Shown here: in pieces, positions 26,040-53,697 of the stretch | How positions within the stretch are numbered: the first letter of the stretch is position 1 | Layout of the letters: each line of letters begins with the position of its first letter | From: a virus | Direction: 5' to 3' (one strand) | DNA length: 64,000 bases | IMG/VR virus record: IMGVR_UViG_3300046463_000247 | Span: 34,046-98,045 of that record | Notes under the pieces: model-generated | Databases searched by the model: none | The model's input: only the letters and a program-made list of their open reading frames with translations | Told to the model about the DNA's origin: nothing | Program-made: the position numbers and the translations under genes

Positions 26040-27937
26040 TCTGCGAGGTGGATCAGGTCCGGCGTGCTGCCGCCGAACGACAGCGCGGCGACCATCGAGT
26101 AGAACGCGTGCTTTTCGTCCCCCTCTAGGTCGTCCACCTCGGCCAGCACCTCAGACTTCTCGGCGTCCGACAGTTCGTGCTTCAGCGCAATGGTGCCGCG
26201 CACGCCCGCGTAGTCCATCGCCAGTTGCAGCAGTTCACCGCCGCCCTTCTTGGCCTTGCCAGGGGCTTTGCCCGCCGTGGTAGTAGCGGTGGCCGTGTCC
26301 TTGCCGTTCGCGGGCGCGGTGGGCTTGCCAGAGGCTTTCGCCGGGGTCGCCGCCTTGGCCTGGGCCGCAGCGGTGGCCTTGCCCTCGGTCGGGGTCGGCT
26401 TGCCGGGGGCCTGGTTGGGCGTGACCGGGTTCTGGCCCGGCACCATCGCCTCGGTGATCGTCACGCGGTCCGGCGCGGCGTTCGGGTCGTACTTCAGGTT
26501 CGTGCCGCTGATCTGGTTCACTTCCTTCACGAAAGTCGCGCCGTCCGACAGGTCCTTGGCGAGCGTAAGGCCCTTGATCTGGCTGTCCACGTTCTTCAGC
26601 GTGATCCCGTTCGACTTCATCAGAATGTCGGTGCAGCCCAGCGCTTTCATGATCGTGGAATTCATCGTCGCGTCGAACTCCGCACGCTCCGGCTGGAACA
26701 CCTGCTCTTCGGCGACCATGTAGGCGACCACAGCGGTGGCGTAGTTGTAGTCGGCAGCACGGCCCGTGAAGAGCGGCGGCAGGCGGAAGCCCGTGCGCAC
26801 GTGATCCTCAGCGGCCTTATCGTAGTTGGCGAACATGTTGTCGCCACCGGCCTGCGAGCCGAAGCGCTCGACCTTGACCTGCACCGACCCGGCGCTATCG
26901 AGCGTGCCCGACGTGGACTGGGCCTCAACCACGACTGCGCGGTTCTTGCTCTTGTTCTTGCCGGACAGGTAGTTCCGAAGCTGGTCGCTGGTCGAGCCCG
27001 CGAGCGAGCCACCCTGCACGAAGATGATTGCAGGCGGCAGGCCACCCGAATCGAAGAACTCCAGGTTCTGCTCTTCGGCCTTGCGCGAGCCGACCACAGA
27101 CGGAAGCTGGTTGATCCAGCGCGGCGTGAAGTAGCTCGATTCCACGTCCGGGTTGACGCCGAACATGATCACTTCGGTTGCGCGGTCCTGCGGCTGGACG
27201 GGCGCGGTATTGCTTTCCCACTCGCCGGTCTTCTTGTTCAACTGGCGGCTCGCCCCGAACTCGCGGTAGTAGGTCTGGTTCTTCGAGTAGCGCGTCATGT
27301 AGCGCCGTTCGCGGTCCAGCATCGTGATCGGAACATCGACGCCGTTGCGCTCGACCGACCGGGTGACCTCGACCGGCTCGTCCAGCTTCACAAGGCGCGT
27401 GTGCACCGCCGACAGATGCCGCAGCGCGACGACCTCGCCTTCGAGGTTGCGCAGCACTTCGAGGAACGAGTAGCCGACGCTCTCGATCTCGCGGCGCAGC
27501 AACCGGCGAATCTGCTGGAAGGTCTTGCCCGGAAAAGGCTCGTTGAAGAACGACTTGGCGATCTTGAGTTGCTTCGCGTCTGGTTGCTTGGTTTCATCCT
27601 TGGCGACGAACTCATGGCCGGTCGAATCGACGTTGACTTCCATCGCCTCGATGCACTGGTTCAGGATGTTGTTGCGCGTCGCCAGGCCCATCAGCACCTT
27701 CGGCTGGAAGGGCGGGCGCAGCACGACGGCGGACGAACTGCTCGCCGTGAAGTACAGACCCGCGAACTCGTCCTCCGGCGCATAGGCGCTATCGGCCAGC
27801 ACCATATAGGTGTCGCCGCCGATGACCTTCTGGATCGGAGTCAGTTTGGAACTGGGTTTGGGCTTCGAGGGCGTGCTGGTCGGGCGCGTCGGGTTGCCCG
27901 AGTCAGACGTGTCGATGCTGTTCGTTTTGCCTGCCAT
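26021..27937 (-). CDS. Portal protein
   Basis: GYSFLEVLRN, PRW, FFDSGGLP, FRLPP...G...DYN.ATA, EQVFQPER motifs; first head gene. Confidence 0.85.
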   Translation of the reverse strand: MAGKTNSIDTSDSGNPTRPTSTPSKPKPSSKLTPIQKVIGGDTYMVLADSAYAPEDEFAGLYFTASSSSAVVLRPPFQPKVLMGLATRNNILNQCIEAMEVNVDSTGHEFVAKDETKQPDAKQLKIAKSFFNEPFPGKTFQQIRRLLRREIESVGYSFLEVLRNLEGEVVALRHLSAVHTRLVKLDEPVEVTRSVERNGVDVPITMLDRERRYMTRYSKNQTYYREFGASRQLNKKTGEWESNTAPVQPQDRATEVIMFGVNPDVESSYFTPRWINQLPSVVGSRKAEEQNLEFFDSGGLPPAIIFVQGGSLAGSTSDQLRNYLSGKNKSKNRAVVVEAQSTSGTLDSAGSVQVKVERFGSQAGGDNMFANYDKAAEDHVRTGFRLPPLFTGRAADYNYATAVVAYMVAEEQVFQPERAEFDATMNSTIMKALGCTDILMKSNGITLKNVDSQIKGLTLAKDLSDGATFVKEVNQISGTNLKYDPNAAPDRVTITEAMVPGQNPVTPNQAPGKPTPTEGKATAAAQAKAATPAKASGKPTAPANGKDTATATTTAGKAPGKAKKGGGELLQLAMDYAGVRGTIALKHELSDAEKSEVLAEVDDLEGDEKHAFYSMVAALSFGGSTPDLIHLAECNHVH

Positions 27938-27996
27938 TTGCGCCTCTTTACGGAAGAATGGCGCATTCTACGGTAGCGGCTCGATGGCGAACAAGC

Positions 27997-28031
27997 AAAA
28001 AAGAGGGGCCACCCGGTACATGAGTGGCCCC
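27997..28031 (-). terminator. Rho-independent terminator after the DNA polymerase operon
   Basis: GGGGCCAC...GTGGCCCC-TCTTTTTT on the minus strand. Confidence 0.7.
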
Positions 28032-28152
28032 GAAGCATGCCGTGGGCGGGGAGCCCTGCCGCACAACCAACTGCATTTTGCAATCAATTGCACAACGGTA
28101 GAGATTCTACAGGCAGCGGCGGATTCTGCAAACAACCGAAAAGTTCTGGGAA

Positions 28153-30540
28153 TCAGACTTTCAGTTTCAGTTCCGCCATGTTTTTGCCCGCCTTCCCATC
28201 GGCAGTGAATTTAAGCTGCGGGTGCCAATTCACGGTTTCGAACGGAAGATTTTCCATCAGTTCGATCTCGCGCTTCGCGTAGAACTCCCAGTTGTCCTCG
28301 GGGATGTACGTGTACTTCGCGTCGTGCACCGCGCCGAATGCCGGGCAGGTCTTGGTCCAGCCGTTCTTGTGCGCGAGCGCGAACGTCCACAGCATCATGT
28401 CGGACAGCGTGGACTGGATCGGCGAGTTGATCGCCTGGCGTTCGGCCCCGCTGCGTACCATCCGGTTCGGCGAGTTGATCAGCGGCAGGTGGCGGATACG
28501 GCCCAGCGGCGAGCGCACCATGCCGGTCTTGCTGGCCTCACGCTTGTAGTTGCGGTGGTACACCGGCAGCATCTGGTACGTGTTGAAGAACTGGTTACGG
28601 AAGTCTTCCGCCTCTTCCATCTTCAGCGACACGCCATAGTTGGTCTCCGCGTACGCATGGAAGCCCTGCGCCGACATCCCGTAGATCAGACCGAAGTTGC
28701 CTGCCTTGCCAAGCTGGCGGGTTGCCTCGTACAGCGCCACCTCGTCGGGGTCGTCGCTGTTCTTCATCGCCATCATCCGCTCGTACGTGTAGCCCGCGAA
28801 GTTGCCGGACGTGATCGCGTGCAGGTCCTTGCCGTTGCGGTACGCGTCGATCATCGTGGGCTCGTCGGCCACACAGGCGATCACCTTCAGTTCGCCCTGC
28901 GAGTAGTCGTTCTCCAGGATCAGGTAGCCCTCGGGCGCGATGAAGCACTTGCGCAGCTTCTTCGCCCATTTGGTGTGCTTCGGGATCGTCTGGAAGGCGG
29001 GGTCCTTGCACGAGAGCCGCCCGGTCACGGTGCCGCCCTCGCCCTCGTCGCGGTTGCCCGCGAAGAAGTAATAGCTGGGGTGAAAGCGCCCGTCGCTGCG
29101 TATGTGCTTCTGGAACCCGTGCACGTAGGTCGAGAGGGTCTTGGCCGCGCTCGAATAGTCCGACAGCAGCGCAATGAACGGCGCGGCGCGCTCGTCCTTC
29201 TTGAACATCATCAGGTGCTCTTCTGCCGTCGAAGGCTTGCCGCTTTTCTCGGTCATCATCTTCGGCTTCAGATTCAGACCTTGGGGCGTGAACATGAAGT
29301 CGTTCAGCAGCGATGCCTTCGTGATGTTCAGCCCACCAGGCTTCGAATCGTCCCAGTGCTTCGCGACGAGGTGCCCGCCCAGGTGGCGCTTCGCCTCGAC
29401 AGTCAGCTTCGCCATTTCGGTCACGAGGTCCGCTTCCAGTTCCTTGTACGCGTCCATGTCCACCAGCACGCCACCCTGCTCGATGGCCTCGAACGAACGC
29501 GCGGCTGGGTGCAGGATGTTGACGTAGAAGCGGGTCAGCGCCTCGTCTTTCAGCAGTTCCTCCTTCATCACCTTGCGCACGCGCAGCCCCGCGTCGGTGT
29601 CGCCCCCGGCGTAGCCCAGCAGCCGGTCGTCAGGTGGTAGCTTGTCCATGCGCGACTTGTCCACGATCCGGTCGAACTCGTCGGAGTAGCCCCCCATCGT
29701 CGTGTAAATCTTCGCGTGGATGTCGAGCCCGTTGGAGCGGTTTTCGTCCAGCAGCGAGCCTACCAGTGTCGAGTCGAAGCGGAAGTTGCCGCAGTGCAGC
29801 CCACCCCACACCGCGAGCCAGTGCAGGTCGAACTTCAGGTTCGCACCGCCCATGCTGATCTTCGGGCTGTTCAGCAGTTCGCCCATCATCACGGCGTTGT
29901 CGAAGTTGCTGAACCACGCGATGCACTCGTCACGCGACTTGAAGTGGATCAGGTCGGAGCGGCCCACCTCGCACGAGAACTGGATCGTGACGATGTACGC
30001 GCCGGGGTGGCCGGGCTCCACTTCACCGGGCTTGGCATACGGATCGAGCCCGACCGTCTCCAGGTCGAGCACGCATTCGACGGGTCTGCCGGTCTCCGCA
30101 TACAGCGCGTCGATGCGCGTCAGCATGTCGTGGAAGTCGGTGACCCACCGGTAGTCGCCGGTCGCGGGCTCGTAGCGGCCTGTCTTCAGCACCCGCACCA
30201 CGCTCGATGTGTCGCACAGCACGTCGATGAACTTCGCGTAGTCGATCTCGCCGATGCCGGACGAGTAGGTGAACATCAGCGGCGCGGCGATGCCTTGGAA
30301 CTGGTGCACGCGGGAGCGCTGCGAGGTCAGCGAGCGGTTCTTTGGCAGCAGGCCCGAGCGTTGGAACAGGTCGAGCGTCTTGGTGCCCATGCACAGGATG
30401 GCGCGGGTCCCCTCGTACGCTGGCAGGCGGCTTACGTCGCTGTCCAGCAGCACGGGGAGATCGGAGTGGTGCCGGAGCACCGGGGACAGGTGCGATATGG
30501 TCTGGTGGTTGACCGTATCGCCCCAGAGTACGAGAGACAT
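28153..30540 (-). CDS. DNA polymerase family A with 3'-5' exonuclease and a degenerate N-terminal UDG-like region
   Basis: Exo I LDLET; TVTGRLS; motif A DYSQGELK; motif B RQLGKAGNFGLIYG; motif C VHD. Confidence 0.93.
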   Translation of the reverse strand: MSLVLWGDTVNHQTISHLSPVLRHHSDLPVLLDSDVSRLPAYEGTRAILCMGTKTLDLFQRSGLLPKNRSLTSQRSRVHQFQGIAAPLMFTYSSGIGEIDYAKFIDVLCDTSSVVRVLKTGRYEPATGDYRWVTDFHDMLTRIDALYAETGRPVECVLDLETVGLDPYAKPGEVEPGHPGAYIVTIQFSCEVGRSDLIHFKSRDECIAWFSNFDNAVMMGELLNSPKISMGGANLKFDLHWLAVWGGLHCGNFRFDSTLVGSLLDENRSNGLDIHAKIYTTMGGYSDEFDRIVDKSRMDKLPPDDRLLGYAGGDTDAGLRVRKVMKEELLKDEALTRFYVNILHPAARSFEAIEQGGVLVDMDAYKELEADLVTEMAKLTVEAKRHLGGHLVAKHWDDSKPGGLNITKASLLNDFMFTPQGLNLKPKMMTEKSGKPSTAEEHLMMFKKDERAAPFIALLSDYSSAAKTLSTYVHGFQKHIRSDGRFHPSYYFFAGNRDEGEGGTVTGRLSCKDPAFQTIPKHTKWAKKLRKCFIAPEGYLILENDYSQGELKVIACVADEPTMIDAYRNGKDLHAITSGNFAGYTYERMMAMKNSDDPDEVALYEATRQLGKAGNFGLIYGMSAQGFHAYAETNYGVSLKMEEAEDFRNQFFNTYQMLPVYHRNYKREASKTGMVRSPLGRIRHLPLINSPNRMVRSGAERQAINSPIQSTLSDMMLWTFALAHKNGWTKTCPAFGAVHDAKYTYIPEDNWEFYAKREIELMENLPFETVNWHPQLKFTADGKAGKNMAELKLKV

Positions 30541-30935
30541 TACTTACGTTTCCAGTCGTCGCTTGTGTATTCGTAGGAGCAGACAATGCCCTTGTCGAGT
30601 GCCGCGAGGGTCTTGTCCGCATCACCCCGTGCAACGAATTCCAGTGTCGAGAGCGACAGGCCACACAGGTTTCCGTTGAGGACGTGGCAGGTCAGGGCCT
30701 TGCCCAGGTTCTCGGAGACGAAGTATAGCCACAAATCTTTCCGCACTTTCATGAAAGCGGACGATTTTTCCTTGGATACCTGGTCAGTGATCAGGGACAC
30801 GTCCACCGGGAAGCGGAACGGGCCGATTTCCAGCACGCGGGACTTCAGACCGCGCCAGCTATTGTTGCCCTGGTGATCGAGCGGGATTTCGGCAGCGTCA
30901 ACGATGGTCAGCAGGGATAGAACTTCGATGCTCAC
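30540..30935 (-). CDS. Hypothetical protein
   Basis: Coupled ORF upstream of pol. Confidence 0.55.
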   Translation of the reverse strand: MSIEVLSLLTIVDAAEIPLDHQGNNSWRGLKSRVLEIGPFRFPVDVSLITDQVSKEKSSAFMKVRKDLWLYFVSENLGKALTCHVLNGNLCGLSLSTLEFVARGDADKTLAALDKGIVCSYEYTSDDWKRK

Positions 30936-31192
30936 AGGGCCTCCAGCGACACAATGGTTTCGATCACTTCGACGGTGAATTCCCCCATCGACACACCCTG
31001 CCAGTACAGCCCAAGCCGGAACCACCGGTCGTCGGACGCCTCCAGCACCACCGCCTGCGCGTCCACCGGGTCGATGCCCGGCACCGGGCTCGCGATAGGC
31101 AGGCTCTGGCCGACCGGCGTCGCGCGCAGATTCGCCAGCAGCTTCTCAGCGTCCGGCGAAGTCGTTTTCATTTCGGTTACTTCGCGGCTCAT
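30932..31192 (-). CDS. Hypothetical protein
   Basis: Overlapping start/stop coupling with both neighbours. Confidence 0.55.
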   Translation of the reverse strand: MSREVTEMKTTSPDAEKLLANLRATPVGQSLPIASPVPGIDPVDAQAVVLEASDDRWFRLGLYWQGVSMGEFTVEVIETIVSLEAL

Positions 31193-32136
31193 TCGGTCAC
31201 CCCGATCTGTTTTACGTTCTTGATCTGTTCATCGAAGTCCACGCCCAGGCCCATCAGGAACGCGCCAATCACGCGGCCCACCGGCACGCCGTTGGTCTGG
31301 AAGTGGATTGAGTAGTGGCCCTGCGTGCTCGGGTTCATGCTCGCGGCCTTCAGCGCGTTGCGAATCTCGGCGTTGAACGGACCCTCGGCGCGGATGCTGA
31401 CGCTGGCCCCGTCTGCAATTGATTGCACGCGAGCGGCGAGCTTGACCCGCTCCGACAGCGCAATGCACAGGTACACGCTGTGCGCGTCGGTGCCCTTCAC
31501 CTTCTGGCCGATCTGCGTGGCGTCCTTCAGCGCAACCACCCCTGCGGGCATCACCGGAGCCTTCGGCTTGACACTGGGGTCCACCTTGAACGGCATCGCC
31601 TCGGCGTGCAGGTCAGCCGCCTGTTCAGCCGGGGGCACCTTCTTCGTCGGCTTCGGGGTCACCATGTTGCCGGACAGCGAGCCGGGGAAGTCCCCGCCAC
31701 TGGTGAACTGCACCTTCTTCGTCGGCTTGATCTTCTCGGCCTCGGCGAAAAACTGCTCTGCCGGGCTCGGGATTACCGTCTTGATCGCCTCCATCGCGTT
31801 CTCCGCGACGCTGCCGCCGTTCGCATCGAGAAAGCCCCACGCGTCCGCCAGCACCTGCTCGACCAGCGTCTTGCATGAGGCTTTCACCCCTGCGTCGGCG
31901 GTGCCCTTGATCAGCGAGACCGTCGAGGCGGGTAGCGTCACGCCGTACGTGAAGGGCATCCCGTTCTTCGCGGTGCCGCTCACGCCGATATTGAAAAACG
32001 CCTGGTTCACTTCGATGTGCTGGCTATTGGCCTCCAGCGCGTGAAACTCTACCAGCAGGTCCGGGTAGACCTTACCGAGAAACGACCCGTCACCGGGGGC
32101 CGATTTGGGCTGATTTATTTTGAGGTTTAGTGCCAC
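31189..32136 (-). CDS. Hypothetical protein (315 aa)
   Basis: First gene after the promoter at 32170-32197; phage-like codon usage. Confidence 0.65.
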   Translation of the reverse strand: MALNLKINQPKSAPGDGSFLGKVYPDLLVEFHALEANSQHIEVNQAFFNIGVSGTAKNGMPFTYGVTLPASTVSLIKGTADAGVKASCKTLVEQVLADAWGFLDANGGSVAENAMEAIKTVIPSPAEQFFAEAEKIKPTKKVQFTSGGDFPGSLSGNMVTPKPTKKVPPAEQAADLHAEAMPFKVDPSVKPKAPVMPAGVVALKDATQIGQKVKGTDAHSVYLCIALSERVKLAARVQSIADGASVSIRAEGPFNAEIRNALKAASMNPSTQGHYSIHFQTNGVPVGRVIGAFLMGLGVDFDEQIKNVKQIGVTE

Positions 32137-32193
32137 AGTGTCACTCCAAGACCTGTTTGACCTGACTGCATTCTAACACAATCAGCCGGATAG

Positions 32194-32982
32194 TCAAACA
32201 GTATCGTTGCGCATCGCGCGCTTGACCCAGATGTTCTTGCGGGATTGCATCGGGCGGATCGACGGCAGCTTGCGCGGGCCGCTGGCTTTCTTCTCCCGCG
32301 TGCCGACGCCCATCGAGCCCCAGCCGTCACCGTAGATCGGGTCGGCCTTGCCACCGCCGCCGTTACTGCTGACGCGCCCGGTCGTCGGGGCGTGGCTGTC
32401 GAAGTTATCGAAGGGGGCGCTACCGAACAGGTCGCTGCCATACAGGTTCGACGGCGACCACTTGCCGGTCGAATACGTGCGGCTCTTCGACCCGGCCACC
32501 GGCTTGACCCCGTAGTGCTTCTCCAGGAACTTGATCTGCGACTCCGACTCGACCGCCTTCTGGCAGTAGTGCTTGCGCACGTAGGTGATCGCATCGGTCT
32601 CGCCGGTCATGAAGGCGACCAGTGCGGCGAAGAACGTGCCCGTGCGGCCATGTCCGCCGATGCACCCGGCGTGGACCTTCTTGCCCGCCTTGATCTGCGC
32701 TGCCGTCCACTCGACCAGGTTGCGGAACTCCACCGCGTCCATCGGCGCGTGCATGTCGGTCACCGGGAAGTACACCTCGACCGGCCCCTTGTCCGCATGC
32801 CACGGCCAGCTTGCCGCCGTCAGCTTCATCCCGTGATCGAATCCGATGTACACGTCCGCATCGAAGACGGCAGGGCTCAGGCACGAGCCGCCATACACTT
32901 CCCAGTCGCCGACTTTCAGCGCCGGGTGATCGTGGTAGCACATCTTGTAGCCACCGTTGCTCTTGCCGTTCTTTGCTTTCAT
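32194..32982 (-). CDS. CX5R (PTP/dual-specificity) phosphatase 2
   Basis: VTDMHAP acid loop; VHAGCIGGHGRTG P-loop; AVE..SQ motif. Confidence 0.85.
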   Translation of the reverse strand: MKAKNGKSNGGYKMCYHDHPALKVGDWEVYGGSCLSPAVFDADVYIGFDHGMKLTAASWPWHADKGPVEVYFPVTDMHAPMDAVEFRNLVEWTAAQIKAGKKVHAGCIGGHGRTGTFFAALVAFMTGETDAITYVRKHYCQKAVESESQIKFLEKHYGVKPVAGSKSRTYSTGKWSPSNLYGSDLFGSAPFDNFDSHAPTTGRVSSNGGGGKADPIYGDGWGSMGVGTREKKASGPRKLPSIRPMQSRKNIWVKRAMRNDTV

Positions 32983-33011
32983 GCAATCGACTCCTTCGAT
33001 TGTTGCTGGTT

Positions 33012-34064
33012 TCAGGCCGTAGCCTTGGATTTGGTTTTGCCGCGTTCGAGGATCGCGACGGACTGCCCGGGGAACACCTGCCACTCACCCAGCACCTTCG
33101 TGAAGCCCGGGGGCAAGGTGACCTGCTTGCCCGGCTCGCCGTACTTCTCGGCCTGCATCTGCTTCTCGTGCGGGTACTTCTTCAGCGCGCCCAGCGCTTC
33201 GACCTTGTACCAGTCGCAGTACTGGCCGAATTCGTCAGGCCACTCGGTGCGTGCGGCCATCGCAAGCGCGTACAGGTCGGAGAACTTCTTCGCGAAACTG
33301 TGCGACTCGTACATGTCGATCAGCAGTTCGACGCACTGGCCGCTGCGCTGCACGTCGAGAATCTTGTAGATCAGTGCCGAGTAGTCGTCGTACAGCATGC
33401 CCTTGTTGAACATTGGGCCGTTATTGTGCGCGAGCGTCCACGCGGTGTCGATCATCACCTCCAGGCTCGTCTCGCCGTTCACGAAGCGCGAGAGCGTCTG
33501 TGCGATGTTGCCCCACGGCTTGCCGCCGTAGCCACCCGAGAAGTTGCCCTCGTTGAACAGGAACGTCAGCCCCTCGCAGTACGGGCCAAGCTGCATTTCG
33601 GGCGGGTTGTCGAGTAGCGCTTCCACCGCAGTGTGCGATCCGCCGCCCTTGATCAGCTTGTTAAACGCGTAGAAGGCGCTGCCGTACTTCTCTTTCGCCA
33701 GCTTCGGCGTGGCTTCGTCCTTCACGTGGCGCGACTCGCGGGTCGTGATCAGCAGCATGTAGTGGAACAGCCGCAGCCCCTGCGACGCGAGGGCCGAGGT
33801 GTAGGCTTCCATGACCTTGCGCGCCAGCGGCGTGAGGAACTGGTGTCGGGTGAAACGCTTCTGGACGACTGCCGCCAGGTGATTCAGCGCGTAGAAGCGC
33901 AGCGCGTCGGTGTCCGGCTCGGCGAGGCCACCGGGACCTCCGTTCTCCTTGTACGTTTTGCAATTGATTGCAACGCGGGAGACGAGGTAATGGCCGACGC
34001 CTTGCGGGTGCATCTGGGGAGCGCTGAGGTAGTACGCGAGGGTATTCTTGTCTTCGAATCGCAT
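33012..34064 (-). CDS. Conserved-looking hypothetical protein (350 aa) in the dikinase/phosphatase module
   Basis: Motifs TRESRH, GGYGGKPWGNIA, HNNGPMFNKG; has its own promoter and hairpin SD. Confidence 0.7.
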   Translation of the reverse strand: MRFEDKNTLAYYLSAPQMHPQGVGHYLVSRVAINCKTYKENGGPGGLAEPDTDALRFYALNHLAAVVQKRFTRHQFLTPLARKVMEAYTSALASQGLRLFHYMLLITTRESRHVKDEATPKLAKEKYGSAFYAFNKLIKGGGSHTAVEALLDNPPEMQLGPYCEGLTFLFNEGNFSGGYGGKPWGNIAQTLSRFVNGETSLEVMIDTAWTLAHNNGPMFNKGMLYDDYSALIYKILDVQRSGQCVELLIDMYESHSFAKKFSDLYALAMAARTEWPDEFGQYCDWYKVEALGALKKYPHEKQMQAEKYGEPGKQVTLPPGFTKVLGEWQVFPGQSVAILERGKTKSKATA

Positions 34065-34097
34065 GGCGGCTTCACTCCTTGAATGCCGATCTGATAC

Positions 34098-34589
34098 TTA
34101 GGATTCTACCACAAACGACCCGTTTGTCAAACATGTGCGAAATTGAAACAGCGCCTTGATCCGGGCTTTCCGCAGCATTTTCTTCACTTCAGCCGGGATC
34201 GGGTAATCCAGCACGAACTGGTACTGGTCATCCGTCTCGACCGCGTGCGGGTAGTAATGCTCGCGCACGTACTCGACCGGCATCTTCACGCCAAAAGCCT
34301 TCGCCAGGATCGACAGGAACAGCCCTGTGCGGCCCCGTCCCGCGTAGCAGCCCACATACACCTGCTGCCCGGCGAGGACCGCTGCGACCGCCTGCGTCAG
34401 CCCGGCATCGAGCAGGTCTTTCGACGGGACACTGAAGTCCTGCGTCGGAATGTCAATGTCGGCCTTTGCGCCGATTTCCTTCGCCATCTTGACGCCGACC
34501 ATGTTCGCCGGACGCGCCAGATACGGACCGCCTGCGACCGTGAAGTGCTTCAGACCCATGAGTACCGGGAGATTGAGGGTTCCGTTCAT
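34098..34589 (-). CDS. CX5R (PTP/dual-specificity) phosphatase 1
   Basis: IPTQDFSVP acid loop; VYVGCYAGRGRTG P-loop; AVET..Q motif. Confidence 0.85.
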   Translation of the reverse strand: MNGTLNLPVLMGLKHFTVAGGPYLARPANMVGVKMAKEIGAKADIDIPTQDFSVPSKDLLDAGLTQAVAAVLAGQQVYVGCYAGRGRTGLFLSILAKAFGVKMPVEYVREHYYPHAVETDDQYQFVLDYPIPAEVKKMLRKARIKALFQFRTCLTNGSFVVES

Positions 34590-34920
34590 GCTTGTGCAAC
34601 TCCTTTGCGTGTGGCCCGTAGACCGTTTTGATTTGACCAACATAGCCGCAGTGCTTGCAGCCTTCTCCTTCACAGTGCTCGCATTCGTCCCACGCGGTGA
34701 GACTGGTGCGGGCGCTCAACTGGCGTTCCGGGGGCGCGACGTGGGTCATGCTGTGCACCCGCGCGCCGTCCACTTCGAACAGCCAGTTATTGAACCTGCG
34801 GTTGCCGCGTTCGTGCGTGATCAGCGCGGCGCACCGGACCATCTGCTGCAATGCTTCGGGGGTGATACTCTCGGCAGCGCAGACACGCGCCACCTGGTCA
34901 GATTGTTCTAATGCGGACAT
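34453..34920 (-). CDS. Hypothetical protein with a DnaJ-type Zn finger
   Basis: CEHCEGEGCKHCG motif; the 3' end overlaps phosphatase 1. Confidence 0.55.
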   Translation of the reverse strand: MSALEQSDQVARVCAAESITPEALQQMVRCAALITHERGNRRFNNWLFEVDGARVHSMTHVAPPERQLSARTSLTAWDECEHCEGEGCKHCGYVGQIKTVYGPHAKELHKHERNPQSPGTHGSEALHGRRRSVSGASGEHGRRQDGEGNRRKGRH

Positions 34921-35155
34921 GGGTCGGGGCCTCGAAAGCCAGTCGGGGGCGCTGGCTCGCGTCGTGATGCCGAAGCCCGTAACTGACGAATGTTTCATCC
35001 ATGAGTTCGACCCGCGCCTGATCCGTGACCTCGTACGTGCGACCGTTGAATTCGACCGTCACCGAGTTGCCCCGCTGCACGGCCACCACGTTCAGCACGC
35101 CGTTCGTGCCCACCTGAATCTTCGTGCCGCGCGAAACGCCAATACTAAGTGCCAT
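34898..35155 (-). CDS. CsrA/RsmA-like small beta protein (apparent tandem duplication)
   Basis: By eye: N-half MALSIGVSRGTKIQVG..VLNVVAV.RGNSV resembles CsrA beta1-4, and C-terminal RLAFEAPTHVRIR resembles CsrA RIGVNAPKEVSVHR. Confidence 0.55.
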   Translation of the reverse strand: MALSIGVSRGTKIQVGTNGVLNVVAVQRGNSVTVEFNGRTYEVTDQARVELMDETFVSYGLRHHDASQRPRLAFEAPTHVRIRTI

Positions 35156-35579
35156 CGGGTTGCTCCATCAGGTCAGTACATTCATCTGTCAGTGCCCAGA
35201 CACTGCCACCGGGCAGGTTCTTGCGGGCGTGTACCCGGTACACCAGTTTCATGCCCATGAGTACGGTCAGGCAGGTCGATGCCTCGCTTACAGTGAAGCG
35301 CTCGCCTCTGGCTTGCAGCCGGGCGGCAACTTCCCCCGAGTTTGGCTCGTCCAGTTCGGCGAGCATTGCCAGCGTCTTGTACAGGCGGGAGCCGACCTTG
35401 GGGAGCCGTACCCGCGCCTTGTCCGACACTTTCTCGGGGATCACTATCTCCTGCAAGGTGGTTTCCATGACCTTGTTCAGTCCGCACAGACAGTGGAGTA
35501 CGAGGTCAGGACCATCCCATCGCTGGAAAGCCCCGCCAGAGCCGCACTTCGGACACTTCAATCGAGTCATATTCGCCAC
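35145..35579 (-). CDS. Zn-ribbon plus winged-helix putative transcription regulator
   Basis: CPKC...CLCG ribbon; SGEVAARL...TVSEASTCL..L..MKLV.R...GGSVWALT winged-HTH pattern. Confidence 0.6.
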   Translation of the reverse strand: MANMTRLKCPKCGSGGAFQRWDGPDLVLHCLCGLNKVMETTLQEIVIPEKVSDKARVRLPKVGSRLYKTLAMLAELDEPNSGEVAARLQARGERFTVSEASTCLTVLMGMKLVYRVHARKNLPGGSVWALTDECTDLMEQPDGT

Positions 35580-35614
35580 TACTTGCTGAAAGTGGCGGCG
35601 AATATAGCCGTAAA

Positions 35615-37570
35615 TCAGTCGTGGAGCAACTTCGAAACGACAACACTTTCACTCAGAAACGACAGCCCGTTAGGATTGAGCGTGCCGGGCGCGGCCATCA
35701 GGGACAGTCCGTCCTCTTTCTTCTTCCAGGCCATCACCTTCTGCACTGCCGCGCTGTCCTCGCCGGACCACATCAGCACGTTCGACGCGAGCACCAGTTG
35801 CTCCAAGGTCTCGGCCACGCTCAGGCGCGGCAGCTTGGTCTGGCACGTGGTGATGATGCACACGCGGTCCGGGTTCAGCGACACCGACTCCAGCAGGTGT
35901 ACGAGGGCCTGTTCGCGATCCGTCTCGACCGGCGCACCGAACGGCTGAAGGAAAGCGGCCTCGGCCTCTTCGAGCTTCAGCGTCGTGTCGATGTACAGGC
36001 AGGCGGTGGCGTCGTACATGCCCTTCACGAGCTTCGCGAGGCGGTTCTGCGGCCACGTCAGCTTGTCGGCAAGGCGCAGATAGCCCACCGTACCCGAGCC
36101 CGTCTCGTGGCTGATCGGCACCGCGTTCAGCGACTCGAACATCAGGCGGCGGAACTCAGCCAGCGTCGCGTCCTGCGAGCCCGGCACGACCGGCACTTCG
36201 GTCTTCCACACGCGCCCCGTCGCGCCGTCGATGCTCACGCTGCTGCCCTCGGGGAACTGGTTGATCGACACCGACAGGCCCACCACACACGGCTTGTTCA
36301 TCGAACGCGCCACTACTGCGGCGTGCGAGGTCGAGCCGCCCGTCATGGTCAGAATCCCGCGTGCCGCGTTCATTCCGGCGATGTCATCCGGGGTCGTTTC
36401 GCTGGTTACCAGGATACACGGCTTTTTGCAATCAATTGCAGCCTGTGCCGACCGCACGACTACGCCGGTCACGATGCCCGAACACGCGGCGATGCCGGTA
36501 AAGTCCGGTTTCGTGGTGAAAGACGGGTCGATCACGTCGAGCTTAGCGCGGTCGTAGTCGCTGGCCTTCACGCGCTCGAACATCTGCGGCAGCGTCAGCA
36601 TTGCCTCCTTGTGCATGTCCAGCGCGATCTTCACCGCAGCCTTCGCGCTGCGCTTGGCGTTGCGGGTTTGCAGGATGTACAGCTTGCCGTCCTCGACCGT
36701 GAATTCCACGTCCTGCACGTCACCCTTCAGCGATTCCAGCCGCAGCACGGTCTCGATCAGTTCATCGTAGACCGGGTGATTCCAGTCCTTCATCGCGGCG
36801 AGCTTCAGCGGCGTCTTGATGCCTGCCACCACGTCCTCACCCTGCGCATTCGGCAGAAACTCGCCGGTCACGACGTTCTCGCCGGAATCAGGGTTGCGGG
36901 TGAACAGTACGCCGGTTGCCGACTGGTCGTTGAGGTTGCCGAACACCATCGCCTGGATCACCACGGCGGTGCCCCAGTCGTCGGGGATATTGTTCATCTT
37001 GCGGTAGAAAACCGCGCGTTCGTTGTTCCAGGAGTTGAACACCGCCTCAATCGCCTCGGCGATCTGCTGGTCGGTGTCGGGGAACGCGGTGCCGGTCATG
37101 TACGAGTAGATCGACCGGTATTCGTCCGGCGTCGTGCAGTCCTCGAACTCGTGGCGGTCGATGCCCTTGACCACGTTGCCGAACATTTCGATCAGGCGGC
37201 ATTCGCTGTCGGTCACGCAGTGTGCGCCGAGCTTGCTGATCCAGACGTTGCGCGTCGCGCCGTCGATGCCGACGTTCAGCACCGTGTCCATCATGCCGGG
37301 CATCGAGACGCGGGCACCGGAGCGCACCGACACGAGCGGCATGTGGCCCATGTACTGCTTGAAAAATGCGCGGATGTCCGGCAGCGCCTTCTGGATTGCG
37401 GCGCGCACGTACTCGGGGTTCTTCATGTATTCGACGCACACTGTCGTCGGGATGATCAGCGCGGGCGGGACAGTGATGCCGTTCTGCTGCATCCACCACA
37501 GGCCGAAGCCCTTGCCACCCAGGCGCTCGGCGTTGAATTCGCCCTTGGAATAAACGGAAAAGAGTTCCAT
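35615..37570 (-). CDS. Pyruvate phosphate dikinase-like protein lacking the PEP/pyruvate-binding TIM barrel
   Basis: LGGKG, VSVRSGARVSMPGMMDT, QAMVFGN, NAQGEDVVAG, LYILQTR and the phospho-His motif TSHAAVVAR; the last ~190 aa lack PPDK barrel motifs. Confidence 0.9.
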   Translation of the reverse strand: MELFSVYSKGEFNAERLGGKGFGLWWMQQNGITVPPALIIPTTVCVEYMKNPEYVRAAIQKALPDIRAFFKQYMGHMPLVSVRSGARVSMPGMMDTVLNVGIDGATRNVWISKLGAHCVTDSECRLIEMFGNVVKGIDRHEFEDCTTPDEYRSIYSYMTGTAFPDTDQQIAEAIEAVFNSWNNERAVFYRKMNNIPDDWGTAVVIQAMVFGNLNDQSATGVLFTRNPDSGENVVTGEFLPNAQGEDVVAGIKTPLKLAAMKDWNHPVYDELIETVLRLESLKGDVQDVEFTVEDGKLYILQTRNAKRSAKAAVKIALDMHKEAMLTLPQMFERVKASDYDRAKLDVIDPSFTTKPDFTGIAACSGIVTGVVVRSAQAAIDCKKPCILVTSETTPDDIAGMNAARGILTMTGGSTSHAAVVARSMNKPCVVGLSVSINQFPEGSSVSIDGATGRVWKTEVPVVPGSQDATLAEFRRLMFESLNAVPISHETGSGTVGYLRLADKLTWPQNRLAKLVKGMYDATACLYIDTTLKLEEAEAAFLQPFGAPVETDREQALVHLLESVSLNPDRVCIITTCQTKLPRLSVAETLEQLVLASNVLMWSGEDSAAVQKVMAWKKKEDGLSLMAAPGTLNPNGLSFLSESVVVSKLLHD

Positions 37571-37661
37571 CTGGCTATTCACTCCTTGAATTGGCCGTTG
37601 AGTCATCAGAATAACACACCGGCCCGGATTGTCAAACAGTATTTCAGGCCGGTGCCGGTCG

Positions 37662-37949
37662 TCAGTACGGGGGCTGTAGCTGTTCGGGCGTCAGGTCTTC
37701 GTGGCCGGATGCGGGCTCGAACTCGGGCTTTACCGCGTCGGTCAGCTTCTTCCAGTAGGGCGTCCAGTTGCCGACCCGTCCGGTCCGCGAGTTGTCCCAG
37801 TCGCCACCGGGATTCTGCACTGGCTTGCCCTTGGCGGTCTGCACGCCGATGTACTGCCACACCTCTCCCAGCGGGCTCAGGCCGTACACCACGTCCTCGC
37901 CGTTGTCGTTGGTGGATGCGGTGATCTGCGAAAAACGGATGCCTGCCAT
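37662..37949 (-). CDS. Hypothetical protein
   Basis: 95 aa ORF after the ligase. Confidence 0.55.
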   Translation of the reverse strand: MAGIRFSQITASTNDNGEDVVYGLSPLGEVWQYIGVQTAKGKPVQNPGGDWDNSRTGRVGNWTPYWKKLTDAVKPEFEPASGHEDLTPEQLQPPY

Positions 37950-37952
37950 GCT

Positions 37953-38870
37953 TTAGCCCTCACTCATATCAAAACGTTCACGGAACATCTGGTGCGTCGG
38001 GAAACGCGGCTTGTCTTTCACGCCGACCGGGAAGTGGCGGAACTTGCTGATGCGGCCCAGCAGCTTCTGCGGGTTCTGGAACAGGTCGGTTGCCTCGGCC
38101 ACCGTCATGCGGCCCGGGCTGATCGTCACGACCTGATCCTTGAAGATGCCCGTCAGCACGCGGCCCGTCAGCGAACCAATCTGGCCGTTGGGCACCTGGT
38201 TGGCCTTGTGGCTGCTGCGCTCGGTGTGGCCCAGTTCGTTGGTCTTCGCCTCGTTCAGGTTCTTGCGGCCTTCCTCGAACCCGATGATCTCGGCCTCGTC
38301 GTCCGCGAAGGTCTTGATCCGCAGCACCTCGCACTTGGTCAGCGTCGAGCGGCCATGCTTGTAGAACGAATCCGGGCGACGCACGATGCTGCCCTCGTAG
38401 CCCACCTCCAGGTGCACCTTGTCCTGCTCTAGCACCTGTTCGAGGTTTTCCACGATGCCAAAGGGCATCGGCACCAATGCGAGGTCCCCCAGCCCGTTTA
38501 GACGGTTCAGCAGCGCTTCATACCGCGCCTCATAGCACAGGCCCATCGTCGCGGCGGTCAGGTAGTCGAACACGTACCATGTCAGCACGGGTGAACCCTC
38601 CTGCGTGCTCAGCGCGCTCGTCGTCGCACGGCACAGGTCTGTCGCCTGCGGGTTCGCACCGACGATCATTTCACCGTCCAGGCCGTGGTAGTCCGCCCCG
38701 CCGAAGCGCTTCTGCACGTACAGGTTGCCGGGCTTCTTCAGCGAGCGGCCCACCGCCACGCCGTCACGGTTGAGCGTGCGCACGCCGTCGATCTTGGGCT
38801 GCTGCCATGCGGGAAACTGGAGTTTTTCGAGCACCGCGTCTTCGGCGAGCATAGGCTTGAAGCTGGTCAT
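37953..38870 (-). CDS. ATP-dependent DNA ligase (minimal type)
   Basis: KPMLA, KIDGVR (motif I), LDGE, VFD, YEG, RIK, PRFP. Confidence 0.92.
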   Translation of the reverse strand: MTSFKPMLAEDAVLEKLQFPAWQQPKIDGVRTLNRDGVAVGRSLKKPGNLYVQKRFGGADYHGLDGEMIVGANPQATDLCRATTSALSTQEGSPVLTWYVFDYLTAATMGLCYEARYEALLNRLNGLGDLALVPMPFGIVENLEQVLEQDKVHLEVGYEGSIVRRPDSFYKHGRSTLTKCEVLRIKTFADDEAEIIGFEEGRKNLNEAKTNELGHTERSSHKANQVPNGQIGSLTGRVLTGIFKDQVVTISPGRMTVAEATDLFQNPQKLLGRISKFRHFPVGVKDKPRFPTHQMFRERFDMSEG

Positions 38871-38898
38871 GCTGAGGTCCTTTCTGGTTGGTATCGGG

Positions 38899-39228
38899 TC
38901 AGGCGTTTGCAATCAATTGCAGCCCGCACTCGGGCGCGTCGAGCCGCCGTGCGTTGTGCTGGTAGCAGTCGTAGGTCCAGCCGGTCAGCCAGCCCCGGCC
39001 CACCGTCAGCCGGTATTCGCGGGCCACCGCGACGTAAGGCGGGTCGTTCTCATAGTCGTGGCTCGGCACCGCCACCGGGCGCTCCAGGCCGTGCGCGATC
39101 AGCACCTCGTCGTCGGCGCGCATGGTGCGCAGCAGCCCCAGTGCGACACACACGTGCAGCTTGATCCGGTAGAAGCGGGAAACGGCCTGCTGGTGCCCTT
39201 GCGTGAGCAGCATCTTTTCGATTGTCAT
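38899..39228 (-). CDS. Hypothetical protein
   Basis: ORF in the operon upstream of the ligase. Confidence 0.5.
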   Translation of the reverse strand: MTIEKMLLTQGHQQAVSRFYRIKLHVCVALGLLRTMRADDEVLIAHGLERPVAVPSHDYENDPPYVAVAREYRLTVGRGWLTGWTYDCYQHNARRLDAPECGLQLIANA

Positions 39229-39242
39229 GGTTGGTCCCTCGA

Positions 39243-39509
39243 TTATCGGTAAAACGACGACCGGACTGCGCGATGGTCGCCCTGCCACTTCTGGCGTACG
39301 GGTGAAATGATGCGGGTGCCGACGATGATGAAGCCGTTGCGCCGCGCCGTGTCCACGATGTCGGCGAGCATCCAGCCCTGCCGCTGCATGGCCTCGGTCA
39401 GCAGCCGGTTGCGCTCGCGCTCGGTGAGCCCGCGCCGGTTATGCGGGGCGTCGCGGTCGGCGAGCAGCAGGTCCAGTTCATCCATGAAGCGTTGCTGTAC
39501 GGAACTCAT
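39243..39509 (-). CDS. Hypothetical protein
   Basis: 88 aa with SD. Confidence 0.5.
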   Translation of the reverse strand: MSSVQQRFMDELDLLLADRDAPHNRRGLTERERNRLLTEAMQRQGWMLADIVDTARRNGFIIVGTRIISPVRQKWQGDHRAVRSSFYR

Positions 39510-39552
39510 GTCGGTCTCCCGAAAGAGGCCCGGGCGGTGCCGGGCAGCGGGC

Positions 39553-39975
39553 TCAGGCGAGGGCTTTCTTCAGCGCTTCGGCGCGGTCAGCCTGGTAGAC
39601 CCAGAACACGTCCATGCCGCCGACCGTGATCCAGATTTTCTTGCCATCGACGCGCTCGCCGACTTCGCCGGTCACGTTCAGGGTGTCGATGTAGCGCTTG
39701 GCGCGGGTGACCCAGCCGCCTGCATCCACCGCGTGCTTGCGGCCTGCCTGCGGCGCGGGGGGCGTCAGGTCCAGCACCGTGACGAAGACCTTCTTGCCCT
39801 CGCCCTTCACGCGGGACGTGATGTGGAACTTCGCACCGGCTTCCAGCGCGCCGATCTCTTCGAGCGCGACGGAGAAGCGTTGCTTGCGGATCACCGGTTT
39901 CACCAGAGCCTTGAGGTCTTCGAGGCTGGCAACCGTGTGCAGTTCGTTGGCGATGGTAACTTGGAAGGCTTTCAT
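39553..39975 (-). CDS. Hypothetical protein
   Basis: First gene after the promoter at 40037-40064, with hairpin SD. Confidence 0.6.
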   Translation of the reverse strand: MKAFQVTIANELHTVASLEDLKALVKPVIRKQRFSVALEEIGALEAGAKFHITSRVKGEGKKVFVTVLDLTPPAPQAGRKHAVDAGGWVTRAKRYIDTLNVTGEVGERVDGKKIWITVGGMDVFWVYQADRAEALKKALA

Positions 39976-40164
39976 GTTCGTCACTCCTTGACGGGTTAGA
40001 AGGCGGTGTTTGTGTTCAGCAATCACCGTAAGAATGATTCTACCCCAACCCTGCGGATAGTCAAACACTCTTTGCAATTGATTGCAAACTCTTTTGTAAC
40101 AGCGGCGGATGTGAAAACGGGGACCGAAGCCCCCGTCTGTCCTGCTTCTGCCTGTGGGTCGGTG

Positions 40165-40512
40165 TCAGTGCACCGGCCTCGTCTGTGTCGCGGTGGTCCC
40201 CGGGATCACGTTTTCACCCGGGTACGGGACGGGCAAATCGTCCTGTATCGGGTGCCCTGCTACAGCGGACAACTGAAACGACCGCTGCCGTGCCCCGCTG
40301 TACTGCAACGGGGTCATTTCTGCCATCACCACCAGCATCGTCATGCACCAGTTCTGGAGCGCGTCCAGGTCGTCCTCGCTGACCGCGCCATCGCGGATCG
40401 CATTGAAGGTGCGGTTGATGTTGGGGCGGTATTCCTGCTCGACCGCATTCGCGAAGTCGAAGTTCTTGATCTTCAGCAGCTTCTCACGCACGTCCACGGG
40501 CTTACGCGCCAT
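40165..40512 (-). CDS. Hypothetical protein
   Basis: GGAG SD, start MARKPVDV. Confidence 0.5.
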   Translation of the reverse strand: MARKPVDVREKLLKIKNFDFANAVEQEYRPNINRTFNAIRDGAVSEDDLDALQNWCMTMLVVMAEMTPLQYSGARQRSFQLSAVAGHPIQDDLPVPYPGENVIPGTTATQTRPVH

Positions 40513-53253: not shown

Positions 53254-53697
53254 TCATGCGCCGGTACTGCCGAAGCCAGCGGCACCACGGGCCGTGTCGT
53301 CCAGTTCATCGGCTTCCTGAAACTGCACGAACGGTACGGGCTCGACCATGGCCTGTGCGATGCGGTCGCCATGCTTGACCAGCAGAGTGCGGCCATACGG
53401 GCTGTCACAGGTCAGCTTCACCTTGACCTCGCCCCGGTAGTCGCTGTCGATGATGCCCACGCAGTTGGCGAGCCGCGTGTCCAGGTTGAAGCCATGCCCG
53501 CTGCGGCTGTATATCTTCATCACGTAGCCCTTCGGCACCGCGAACGCGAGTCCGGTATCCACGACCACCGGTCGGCCCTGCTCCACCAGCAGCACGTCGT
53601 CCGGCACGTACGCCTCCAGGTCGAAGCACGCGGCACCCTCGGTCGCGTAGGCGGGCAGGTTGACGTTCGGGTACAGCCTCTTCACTTTCACCAGCAT
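53254..53697 (-). CDS. dut: dUTPase (trimeric)
   Basis: AACFDL, RSG, GIIDSDYRGE, RIAQ, RGAAGFGSTG (motifs I-V). Confidence 0.95.
   Translation of the reverse strand: MLVKVKRLYPNVNLPAYATEGAACFDLEAYVPDDVLLVEQGRPVVVDTGLAFAVPKGYVMKIYSRSGHGFNLDTRLANCVGIIDSDYRGEVKVKLTCDSPYGRTLLVKHGDRIAQAMVEPVPFVQFQEADELDDTARGAAGFGSTGA

Follow-up and report, generated by a model that had tools for sequence, protein, structure and literature searches.

The 64,000-nucleotide stretch of DNA analysed here (the window; positions 34046-98045 of the virus record IMGVR_UViG_3300046463_000247) carries on its minus strand a block of linked genes for a truncated dikinase, two small CX5R cysteine phosphatases (PTP1 and PTP2) and unk350, an orphan protein of 350 amino acids. 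The dikinase descends from true pyruvate phosphate dikinase (PPDK) and has kept its ATP-grasp and phospho-histidine domains, but judged by its sequence it is in all likelihood not an enzyme of phosphoenolpyruvate (PEP) and pyruvate. We propose, with a probability of roughly 0.4, that the block encodes a phosphoryl-transfer pathway which serves phage nucleotide or DNA modification. That the dikinase acts as a His-phosphate donor together with the neighbouring genes is a reasonably likely part of this proposal; the nucleotide or DNA-modification target is a tentative one.

The record is a complete virus genome of 98,045 bp with direct terminal repeats and a G+C content of 63%, in which the minus strand holds essentially every gene. 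The closest isolates are the Stenotrophomonas phages DLP_3, DLP_5 and Summit (52% identity in the dikinase). Nearer than any isolate is a 98.8-kb Burkholderia ubonensis contig, with 71% identity in unk350 and 70% in the dikinase, and remoter relatives are ~80-kb Vibrio siphophages, the Rhizobium phages TM16 and Y1_11 and the Rhodobacter phage RcZahn. All coordinates are positions in the window unless stated otherwise. Dikinase residues are numbered in the 651-aa form, which starts at the methionine bearing the Shine-Dalgarno (SD) sequence and is also the form called in the protein collection; the full open reading frame (ORF) has 663 aa and extends to 37606. The main features are:

35615-37570, minus strand: dikinase, truncated, PPDK-derived, 651 aa (PF01326, PF00391; start fixed by the SD hairpin)
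36461-37528, minus strand: ATP-grasp nucleotide-binding domain of the dikinase plus linker, residues 15-370 (invariant ATP-site residues)
36215-36427, minus strand: phospho-His swivel domain of the dikinase, residues 382-452 (PF00391)
35618-36199, minus strand: predicted mini TIM-barrel-like C-terminal domain of the dikinase, 194 aa (AlphaFold2, Foldseek, VIA)
34098-34589, minus strand: PTP1, small CX5R cysteine phosphatase, 163 aa (Cys81 codon 34347-34349)
33012-34064, minus strand: unk350, orphan protein predicted to be all-helical, 350 aa, candidate enzyme (invariant polar residues)
32194-32982, minus strand: PTP2, CX5R cysteine phosphatase, 262 aa (Cys107 codon 32662-32664)
32227-32253, minus strand: C-terminal peptide PMQSRKNIW of PTP2, a motif match in the low-complexity tail (32194-32400)

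The dikinase and its C-terminal domain

Only two Pfam families match the dikinase, PF01326 (E 8e-43) and PF00391 (E 4.8e-25), which confirms the ATP-grasp and phospho-His swivel domains that the original prediction had recognised in a protein of ~650 aa. In a search of PDB sequences, residues 15-477 (27-489 of the 663-aa ORF) align to residues 17-525 of PPDK with ~40% identity (E 1e-94), and the PHROG assignment is family 18609, 'kinase' (E 7.5e-171). The motif GGSTSHAAVVAR places the catalytic histidine at residue 416 (codon 36323-36325, minus strand). The counterparts of the PPDK ATP-site motifs GGKG, SVRSGA, DVEFT and LQTRN do not vary among 50 aligned dikinase homologues, nor do T414, H416 and AAVVAR of the swivel domain, and a TSH-type motif is present in 76 of 79 phage orthologues. 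The closest characterised relative of the phage dikinase, VadK of Mycobacterium tuberculosis (Rv1127c), autophosphorylates His422 from ATP and Mg and acts via protein partners, not on pyruvate (PMC13400623). Because of the invariant residues and the autophosphorylation demonstrated for VadK, the phage enzyme is most likely charged with phosphate from ATP at His416.

The last ~190 residues had been predicted to lack the motifs of the PPDK barrel, and this largely holds among its orthologues: GLxRTEH, MIExP, GTNDL and GxCGE occur in none of the 79 phage dikinases and R(L/F)(L/I)D in four. Both full-length PPDKs used as controls have all five motifs, which comprise the PEP, pyruvate and Mg ligands. 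The PEP-utilizers_C family (Pfam: PF02896), for which a domain search had been suggested, has no match at E<=1 in the dikinase or anywhere else in the 98,045-bp genome; 14 out of 14 control genomes gave one in the same genome search. When a profile of the phage C-termini was aligned by hhalign with a profile from 50 of the 74 cellular PPDK barrels, the probability was 0.6%. The dikinase family profile ends near PPDK residue ~537 and no residue beyond P460 is invariant across the 50 homologues. The conserved C-terminal columns are nearly all hydrophobic, with the exception of one Asp (80%) at a strand end in the motif LYxD, which resembles RLLD of PPDK. The PPDK barrel residues Arg561, Arg617, Glu745, Asn768/Asp769 and Cys831 were not recovered, and the general barrel fold alone is left. 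The missing motifs, the lack of an invariant residue after 460, the hhalign result and the absence of PF02896 support the earlier suggestion that the enzyme probably cannot interconvert pyruvate and PEP; on motifs, profiles and the absence of PF02896 we rejected its identification as a true PPDK.

The loss of the motifs does not make this part simply unrelated to a barrel. An AlphaFold2 model of the isolated C-terminus, calculated from a 40-sequence alignment built from viral loci, has alternating strands and helices (pLDDT 91.3), and a small TIM-barrel-like fold is predicted. Foldseek searches with this model returned almost exclusively TIM barrels, with weak scores (best E 1.6e-3). In the exhaustive VIA search the top match is the PEP-binding domain of PEP synthase (9dae_A, Z 9.3, 184 of 194 residues aligned), and the top 13 include Enzyme I (Z 8.4 and 8.2; 6vu0 with Z 8.4) and residues 515-875 of maize PPDK 1vbg (Z 8.2, 187 residues aligned). 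Unrelated TIM barrels reach Z 8.5, so that their scores are tied with those of the PEP-utiliser barrels within the error of the tool; the longest alignments, covering 184-187 of the 194 residues, are those to PEP-utiliser barrels. For the model, these scores demonstrate a barrel-like fold and not homology. Its position, its fold and the greater length of the alignments to PEP-utiliser barrels all point the same way, and the simplest reading is that the domain is probably a decayed, vestigial PEP/pyruvate barrel. A C-terminus folded as a PEP-binding barrel had been named as an argument against a repurposed enzyme, and half of it is seen: the predicted fold is barrel-like and the catalytic residues are lost.

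Homologues of the C-terminal domain are hard to find, with four weak matches among 1.8 billion representatives and two by word search; its evolution is too rapid for it to be traced by sequence. In PPDK and Enzyme I the C-terminal barrel is the dimerisation interface. By analogy, the domain is here probably only a scaffold, dimer interface or docking surface, which would account for a fold that persists without its site.

Compared with PPDK (EC 2.7.9.1; Clostridium symbiosum 1KBL, maize 1VBG), the phage dikinase has the same domain order, ATP-grasp and swivel domains that retain the catalytic residues (Lys, Arg, Glu and Gln in the ATP-grasp domain) and the TSH motif, and a barrel-like domain at the matching C-terminal position. 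It differs in the size of this domain (194 aa vs ~340 aa), which has none of the PEP, pyruvate and Mg residues and no profile similarity, and in its separate descent: in a tree built on the N-terminal 490 residues, 75 phage sequences form a single clade against 74 cellular ones, with a support of 1.0 and a stem length of 0.52. All 78 phage dikinase ORFs have 638-773 aa, and all 74 nearest cellular PPDKs have at least 873 aa. Cells did not yield a carrier of the short form: when 185,579 species genomes were searched, each of the best 80 matches was an ordinary PPDK with 37-45% identity. Full-length 'phage' PPDKs from Listeria, Enterococcus and faecal contigs were set aside as 890-aa cellular-type proteins in unverified records in which the module is absent. 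The PPDKs of the UNVERIFIED Enterococcus phage and of the faecal 'Bacteriophage sp.' records keep all barrel motifs and probably represent bacterial DNA or an unrelated acquisition.

VadK is likewise a PPDK derivative without a working barrel. The phage dikinase matches the corresponding short-PPDK model (NCBIfam: NF004531, PRK05878) over profile positions 20-477 of 534 with 446.9 bits, under the cut-off of 456. The VadK chain stops at the end of its His domain; the phage dikinase adds a folded domain. VadK has neither linked phosphatases nor unk350.

The phosphatases and unk350

Both CX5R phosphatases are intact, as had been read from their P-loops CYAGRGR (Cys81 of PTP1) and CIGGHGR (Cys107 of PTP2). 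PTP1 has the general-acid motif DFSVP, the P-loop CYAGRGRTG and the Gln loop VETDDQ; in PTP2 these are DMHAP, CIGGHGRTG and VESESQ, and both enzymes fit the DxxxP general-acid motif and the VE(T/S)xxQ loop. Their Pfam matches lie at the threshold, with 27.4 bits for PTP-SAK and 27.3 bits for Tc-R-P in PTP1 and 27.0 bits for Tc-R-P in PTP2, against a cut-off of 27. Both have PDB matches to small phosphatases (Tk-PTP, SsoPTP, DUSP23) and to receptor-PTP domains, in which the Asp, the CX5R(T)G motif and the Gln loop align. PTP2 matches Tk-PTP 5z59 with E 3.5e-7, again with the Asp, the P-loop and the Gln loop in register. The phage enzymes have the signature of the compact PTP fold in common with the small archaeal and atypical phosphatases (Tk-PTP 5Z59, SsoPTP 2I6I, DUSP23/VHZ), namely the Asp of the general acid, a P-loop of the form (H/G)CX5R(S/T)G and the Gln loop, but they match them weakly (E 1e-7 to 1e-4) and form two phage-specific paralogue groups with the fixed P-loops GCMGGxGRT and GCIGGHGRT, of which PTP2 has a long tail with a conserved peptide.

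The P-loop xCX5R(T) is kept in 77 out of 77 PTP1 orthologues, usually as GCMGGxGRT. GC[IVML]GGHGRT, nearly always in the form GCIGGHGRT, is found in 72 out of 73 PTP2 orthologues, and the lone exception is cut by a contig end. Nearly every orthologue of both groups keeps the catalytic Cys, Arg, Asp and Gln. Since the P-loops are kept across the orthologues, PTP1 and PTP2 appear to be two distinct, active, hydrolytic enzymes and not phosphorelay carriers.

The Gly/Ser-rich tail of PTP2 ends in PxxSxxx(I/L)(W/F) in 45 of 73 orthologues, compared with 11 of 2138 control ORFs (0.5%), and the motif almost never occurs in PTP1. This C-terminal peptide looks like a docking peptide or a tether to a partner. 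The label 'thymidylate synthase' given to the PTP2 family (PHROG 17568; DLP3_141, at 12632-13408 of its own locus sequence; GenBank records of DLP3 and DLP5) is an annotation error. We rejected this assignment, as PTP2 is a CX5R phosphatase without similarity to ThyA or ThyX.

We found 480 homologues of unk350, none of which has a Pfam domain. The motifs TRESRH, GGYGGKPW and HNNG, which had been described as enzyme-like, proved to be invariant or nearly invariant columns in a 56-sequence alignment. About 25 columns are invariant, mainly Arg, Glu, Asp, His, Asn, Lys, Gln, Tyr and Gly, among them R98, Y102, R109, E110, R112, GG..W184, E202, D206, H213, N214, K221, D237 and Q239. The Arg, Lys, His, Glu and Asp residues among them resemble an active site that binds phosphate and metal. 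The AlphaFold2 model (pLDDT 92.6) is all-helical with a small C-terminal hairpin, and its fold has no match in the PDB, with a best E of 0.36 in Foldseek and a best Z of 4.3 in the exhaustive VIA search. No match was obtained in PDB sequence searches with the single sequence or a profile, nor in Pfam at E<=0.01; NCBIfam, PADLOC and the ESM Atlas gave nothing beyond orthologues, as did BFVD, and the PHROG family (20946) is one of unknown function. From the model, we class unk350 as a candidate enzyme with a new fold. No ORF joins unk350, phosphatase or dikinase domains in a fusion, and the longer unk350 homologues have no extra Pfam domain.

Linkage and neighbourhood of the block

We collected 80 IMG/VR loci with a profile of the dikinase and 80 with a profile of unk350, and counted loci as informative if they had at least ~5.5 kb downstream of the dikinase (~68 loci) or at least 6.5 kb upstream of unk350 (53 loci). 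The four genes were expected to occur together in other phages, and they do so without exception in ~68 of 68 and 53 of 53 loci. Every informative locus of the dikinase set has the order dikinase, 0-3 small genes, PTP, unk350, PTP and the DNA polymerase gene polA, and nearly all of them have a gene like g315, the orphan gene that precedes polA here. In the unk350 set the dikinase is present in all 53 informative loci; no unk350 without a dikinase was seen among them, with more distant homologues outside the reach of this count. Isolates with unk350 are the same set as isolates with the truncated dikinase (tblastn), although in the J26-type Vibrio phages only one phosphatase is detectable. Altogether the module was seen in at least 80 IMG/VR contigs and ~40 isolates. 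The upstream flank varies, with a terminase in 14 of 44 loci and a ligase within 10 kb in 11 of 44.

Sister lineages, as judged by the portal protein (Rhizobium RHph_I4, Pseudomonas SM1/PaMx31), were not among the tblastn matches for the dikinase or unk350. Their stretch between terminase and portal contains dUTPase, glutaredoxin and ThyX (RHph_I4) or a MazG-like NTP pyrophosphatase (SM1). Some Vibrio relatives have a dCTP deaminase directly upstream of the dikinase. The genome analysed here encodes a dUTPase, and ThyA (Pfam: PF00303) and ThyX (Pfam: PF02511) are absent genome-wide.

The other features of the block and its flanks are:

37953-38912, minus strand: ATP-dependent DNA ligase, the upstream flank (PHROG 114, E 5e-46)
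between ligase and dikinase, minus strand: ORF of 95 aa, placed by gene order
35145-35579, minus strand: Cys-rich protein, 144 aa, spacer gene between dikinase and PTP1
34898-35155, minus strand: CsrA-like protein, 85 aa, spacer gene between dikinase and PTP1
34453-34998, minus strand: ORF of 181 aa, spacer gene between dikinase and PTP1
31189-32136, minus strand: g315, two-domain orphan with a Pro/Lys-rich linker, 315 aa, between PTP2 and polA
between g315 and polA, minus strand: two small ORFs, placed by gene order
28153-30540, minus strand: polA, DNA polymerase I of family A with 3'-5' exonuclease (PF00476, E 2.9e-64; PF01612), the downstream end of the block
28005-28031, minus strand: strong terminator-like hairpin directly after polA, with portal and head genes beyond
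40037-40064, 37608-37635, 34103-34130, 32170-32197 and 28104-28132, minus strand: promoter-like sites (TTGACA-16-TAGAAT)

The location between ligase and polymerase is therefore as first described. So is the SD hairpin shared by the genes of the dikinase, PTP1, unk350 and PTP2, since in all four AGGAG lies between inverted repeats of 4-5 bp, 9-12 nt before the ATG. On the minus strand of the region 27500-40500, seven sites of the form TTGACA-16-TAGAAT were seen with 1.9 expected. Together with the single terminator-like hairpin after polA, they suggest that the block may be read as nested transcripts sharing one terminator.

Homologues of the three small spacer genes are found at the same place in DLP_3, and only part of the IMG/VR loci have them. 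The 181-aa ORF has a zinc-finger motif of the CxxCxGxG type. It shares ~137 nt with PTP1, counted from the SD-defined start of that gene, and up to 100 nt with the end of the CsrA-like gene. A homologue of the 85-aa CsrA-like protein is found in the same place in DLP_3 and in ~30 viral loci. The Vibrio relatives have in the corresponding slot a 160-aa gene annotated as CsrA, which was not detected as a homologue of the 85-aa protein. g315 has no match in Pfam, PHROG, NCBIfam or the ESM Atlas and probably belongs to the same conserved block. Its relatives bear the labels 'pyruvate decarboxylase' or 'transporter', for which there seems to be no basis.

In the scanned ORFs of the window, the only other recognisable candidates for nucleotide or DNA metabolism are a DUF1643 protein (59956-60594, minus strand, E 2e-39) and a dUTPase-family protein (53254-53778, minus strand, E 8e-21), the latter with a weak dCTP-deaminase-like match. 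In the part of the record outside the window, the minus strand encodes a ParB_N-methyltransferase fusion (3596-5329), a second ParB_N protein (5158-5880) and a protein with an H-NS-like C-terminal domain (677-1201). These genes would suit life as a plasmid prophage, as has been reported for DLP5, and point to methylation of DNA.

Proposed function and alternative explanations

In the pathway that we propose, the dikinase would take phosphate from ATP onto His416. As its C-terminal domain has no conserved polar site, the acceptor must be defined elsewhere, and the phosphate would then move in trans, most likely on or through unk350. PTP1 and PTP2 would remove two phosphoesters made or used in one pathway, and these are probably different ones because the P-loops of the two enzymes differ and each is strictly conserved. 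The pathway would serve non-canonical DNA by making, activating or trimming a phosphorylated nucleotide or DNA-borne intermediate: the new-fold enzyme unk350 would transform a nucleotide or DNA-borne group activated by the dikinase, and the phosphatases would clear canonical or intermediate phosphates. In its most specific form, in which the dikinase, PTP1, unk350 and PTP2, possibly with g315, are an undescribed route to non-canonical phage DNA, the proposal is doubtful.

We favour a nucleotide or DNA target because the block is constantly joined to polA, because sister phages fill the same slot with nucleotide-metabolism genes, because the genome has a dUTPase and no thymidylate synthase, because a dCTP deaminase abuts the dikinase in some Vibrio members, and because the DNA of DLP3 and DLP5 resists restriction. 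The DNA of both phages is heavily modified: DLP3 DNA resisted 15 out of 15 restriction enzymes (PMC7326821), and DLP5 DNA was cut by only 4 out of 36 (PMC5834331). The proposed logic, a phosphatase, a modifying enzyme and a kinase near replication genes in a phage with restriction-resistant DNA, resembles that of the T4 dCTPase, hydroxymethylase and dNMP kinase and that of thymidine hypermodification by 5-HMUDK and aGPT-Pplase, where a kinase step is followed by substitution. No component is homologous to these routes, and the parallel is one of analogy.

Several observations weigh against this proposal. No acceptor of the dikinase phosphate emerged from these analyses, and there is no recognisable base-modifying enzyme in this genome. 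No similarity between unk350 and a nucleotide-modifying family was detected, in searches that would still miss a very distant relationship to ThyA/dCMP-hydroxymethylase, ThyX or aGPT-Pplase. The best PDB matches of both phosphatases are protein phosphatases, and a fast-evolving C-terminal domain of the dikinase would also suit a protein target. The modification of DLP3 and DLP5 could be due to their own glycosyltransferase, sugar-nucleotide or methyltransferase genes, and the restriction data cover these two phages and no Vibrio members. The dikinase, unk350 and g315 genes are each preceded by their own promoter-like site. Finally, the carriers are one monophyletic phage lineage with conserved synteny, and in a single lineage with a fixed order the linkage may partly reflect inheritance, so that the counts overstate how strongly it speaks for a shared function.

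An unlikely explanation, although the strongest of the alternatives, is a protein switch of the VadK kind. The dikinase would phosphorylate, or bind and control, phage or host proteins, possibly unk350, g315 or parts of the replisome, and the phosphatases would oppose it in a write/erase module for host takeover or replication timing. VadK, itself a truncated PPDK, is a His-autophosphorylating regulator that binds metabolic enzymes (PMC13400623), and the phage dikinase scores just below the model of its family. The fast evolution of the C-terminus, as for a protein-protein interface, the kinship of the phosphatases with solved protein phosphatases and the docking-type peptide of PTP2 would also be explained. 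However, the many invariant polar residues of unk350 look catalytic, unlike those of a passive substrate, and VadK has no associated phosphatases. Moreover, the known acceptors of such enzymes are pyruvate, glucan, rifampicin, water and Pi, and no PPDK-type His-phosphate enzyme is known to act on protein hydroxyls.

Phosphorylation of a glycan or small molecule is quite improbable. The substrate would be a sugar polymer, an envelope component, a glycosylated base, an antibiotic or an immune signal, from which phosphatases of the dual-specificity type (DSPs) remove the phosphate. Parallels for this are rifampicin phosphotransferase and, above all, the plant starch phosphorylation cycle, in which the His-swivel dikinases GWD and PWD are paired with the two CX5R dual-specificity phosphatases SEX4 and LSF2 on the same non-protein substrate, the only known system with such a pairing. 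Non-protein substrates are common for atypical DSPs, and many relatives have glycosyltransferase and sugar-nucleotide genes. On the other hand, no glycosyltransferase was recognised among the ORFs scanned in this genome, PADLOC gave no match, and Pfam finds no carbohydrate-binding module in any of the four proteins. The plant proteins have no sequence relationship to the phage ones past the shared superfamilies, and in GWD and PWD the His domain precedes a C-terminal ATP-grasp, whereas the phage order is ATP-grasp, His, barrel. The architecture of rifampicin phosphotransferase (ATP-grasp, rifampicin-binding domain, C-terminal His domain) is not matched either, and its model (NCBIfam: NF041857) gives 56 bits against a cut-off of 999 with the His domain alone aligned.

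Less credible still is that the four genes have independent early or middle functions and are neighbours by descent only, in a region that is rarely rearranged. This would fit the monophyletic clade and its conserved synteny, the separate promoter-like sites at the dikinase, unk350 and g315, and the variable small genes inserted between dikinase and PTP1. But the upstream flank was reshuffled and the block never was, no informative locus in either set has one member without the others, and a phosphate donor beside two phosphatases is unlikely to be coincidental.

Healing of nucleic-acid ends, as by the Pnkp and ligase of T4, has little to recommend it. In this scheme the dikinase would phosphorylate a 5'-OH, the CX5R enzymes would strip a 3'-phosphate or 5'-polyphosphate and the ATP-dependent ligase would seal the ends. 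A ligase does lie just upstream here and in DLP_3, and polynucleotide 5' ends are substrates of CX5R enzymes such as baculovirus BVP and PIR1; yet most of the loci examined for their upstream flank have no ligase within 10 kb (11 of 44 do), the known end-healing kinases are P-loop enzymes, and unk350 would be left without a role.

That the gene is a genuine PPDK, an auxiliary metabolic gene whose short barrel has kept its binding of PEP and pyruvate, by itself or in a dimer, is highly improbable: the barrel-like C-terminus with PEP-utiliser barrels among its best structural matches and the published annotation and docking for Vibrio phages (PMC12038007) speak for it, but the lost PEP and Mg ligand motifs in 79 orthologues, a C-terminus without an invariant polar residue, the hhalign and PF02896 results and the short length of the phage forms stand against it.

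Phage papers have treated the gene as a PPDK auxiliary metabolic gene (PMC12038007, PMC10141217, PMC9229204), and our literature searches found no paper that treats the linked genes as a unit or ties the module to DNA modification. A dozen or more phage genome papers, as well as many database entries, use the PPDK label, which very probably misnames the gene. Within a large, widely distributed lineage of ~80-120 kb phages that infect alpha-, beta- and gammaproteobacteria, the module is ancient and fixed; it adjoins the replicative polymerase and holds a protein without a known fold. If it acts as a protein switch, phages would have in it their first counterpart of the recently described VadK-type kinase. 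If it is the source of the modification in DLP3 and DLP5, a His-phosphate dikinase working with Cys phosphatases would be new enzymology for phage DNA hypermodification. A pathway to non-canonical DNA would explain why the DNA of DLP3 and DLP5 withstands restriction, and hundreds of uncultured phages of 80-120 kb would be predicted to share its chemistry.

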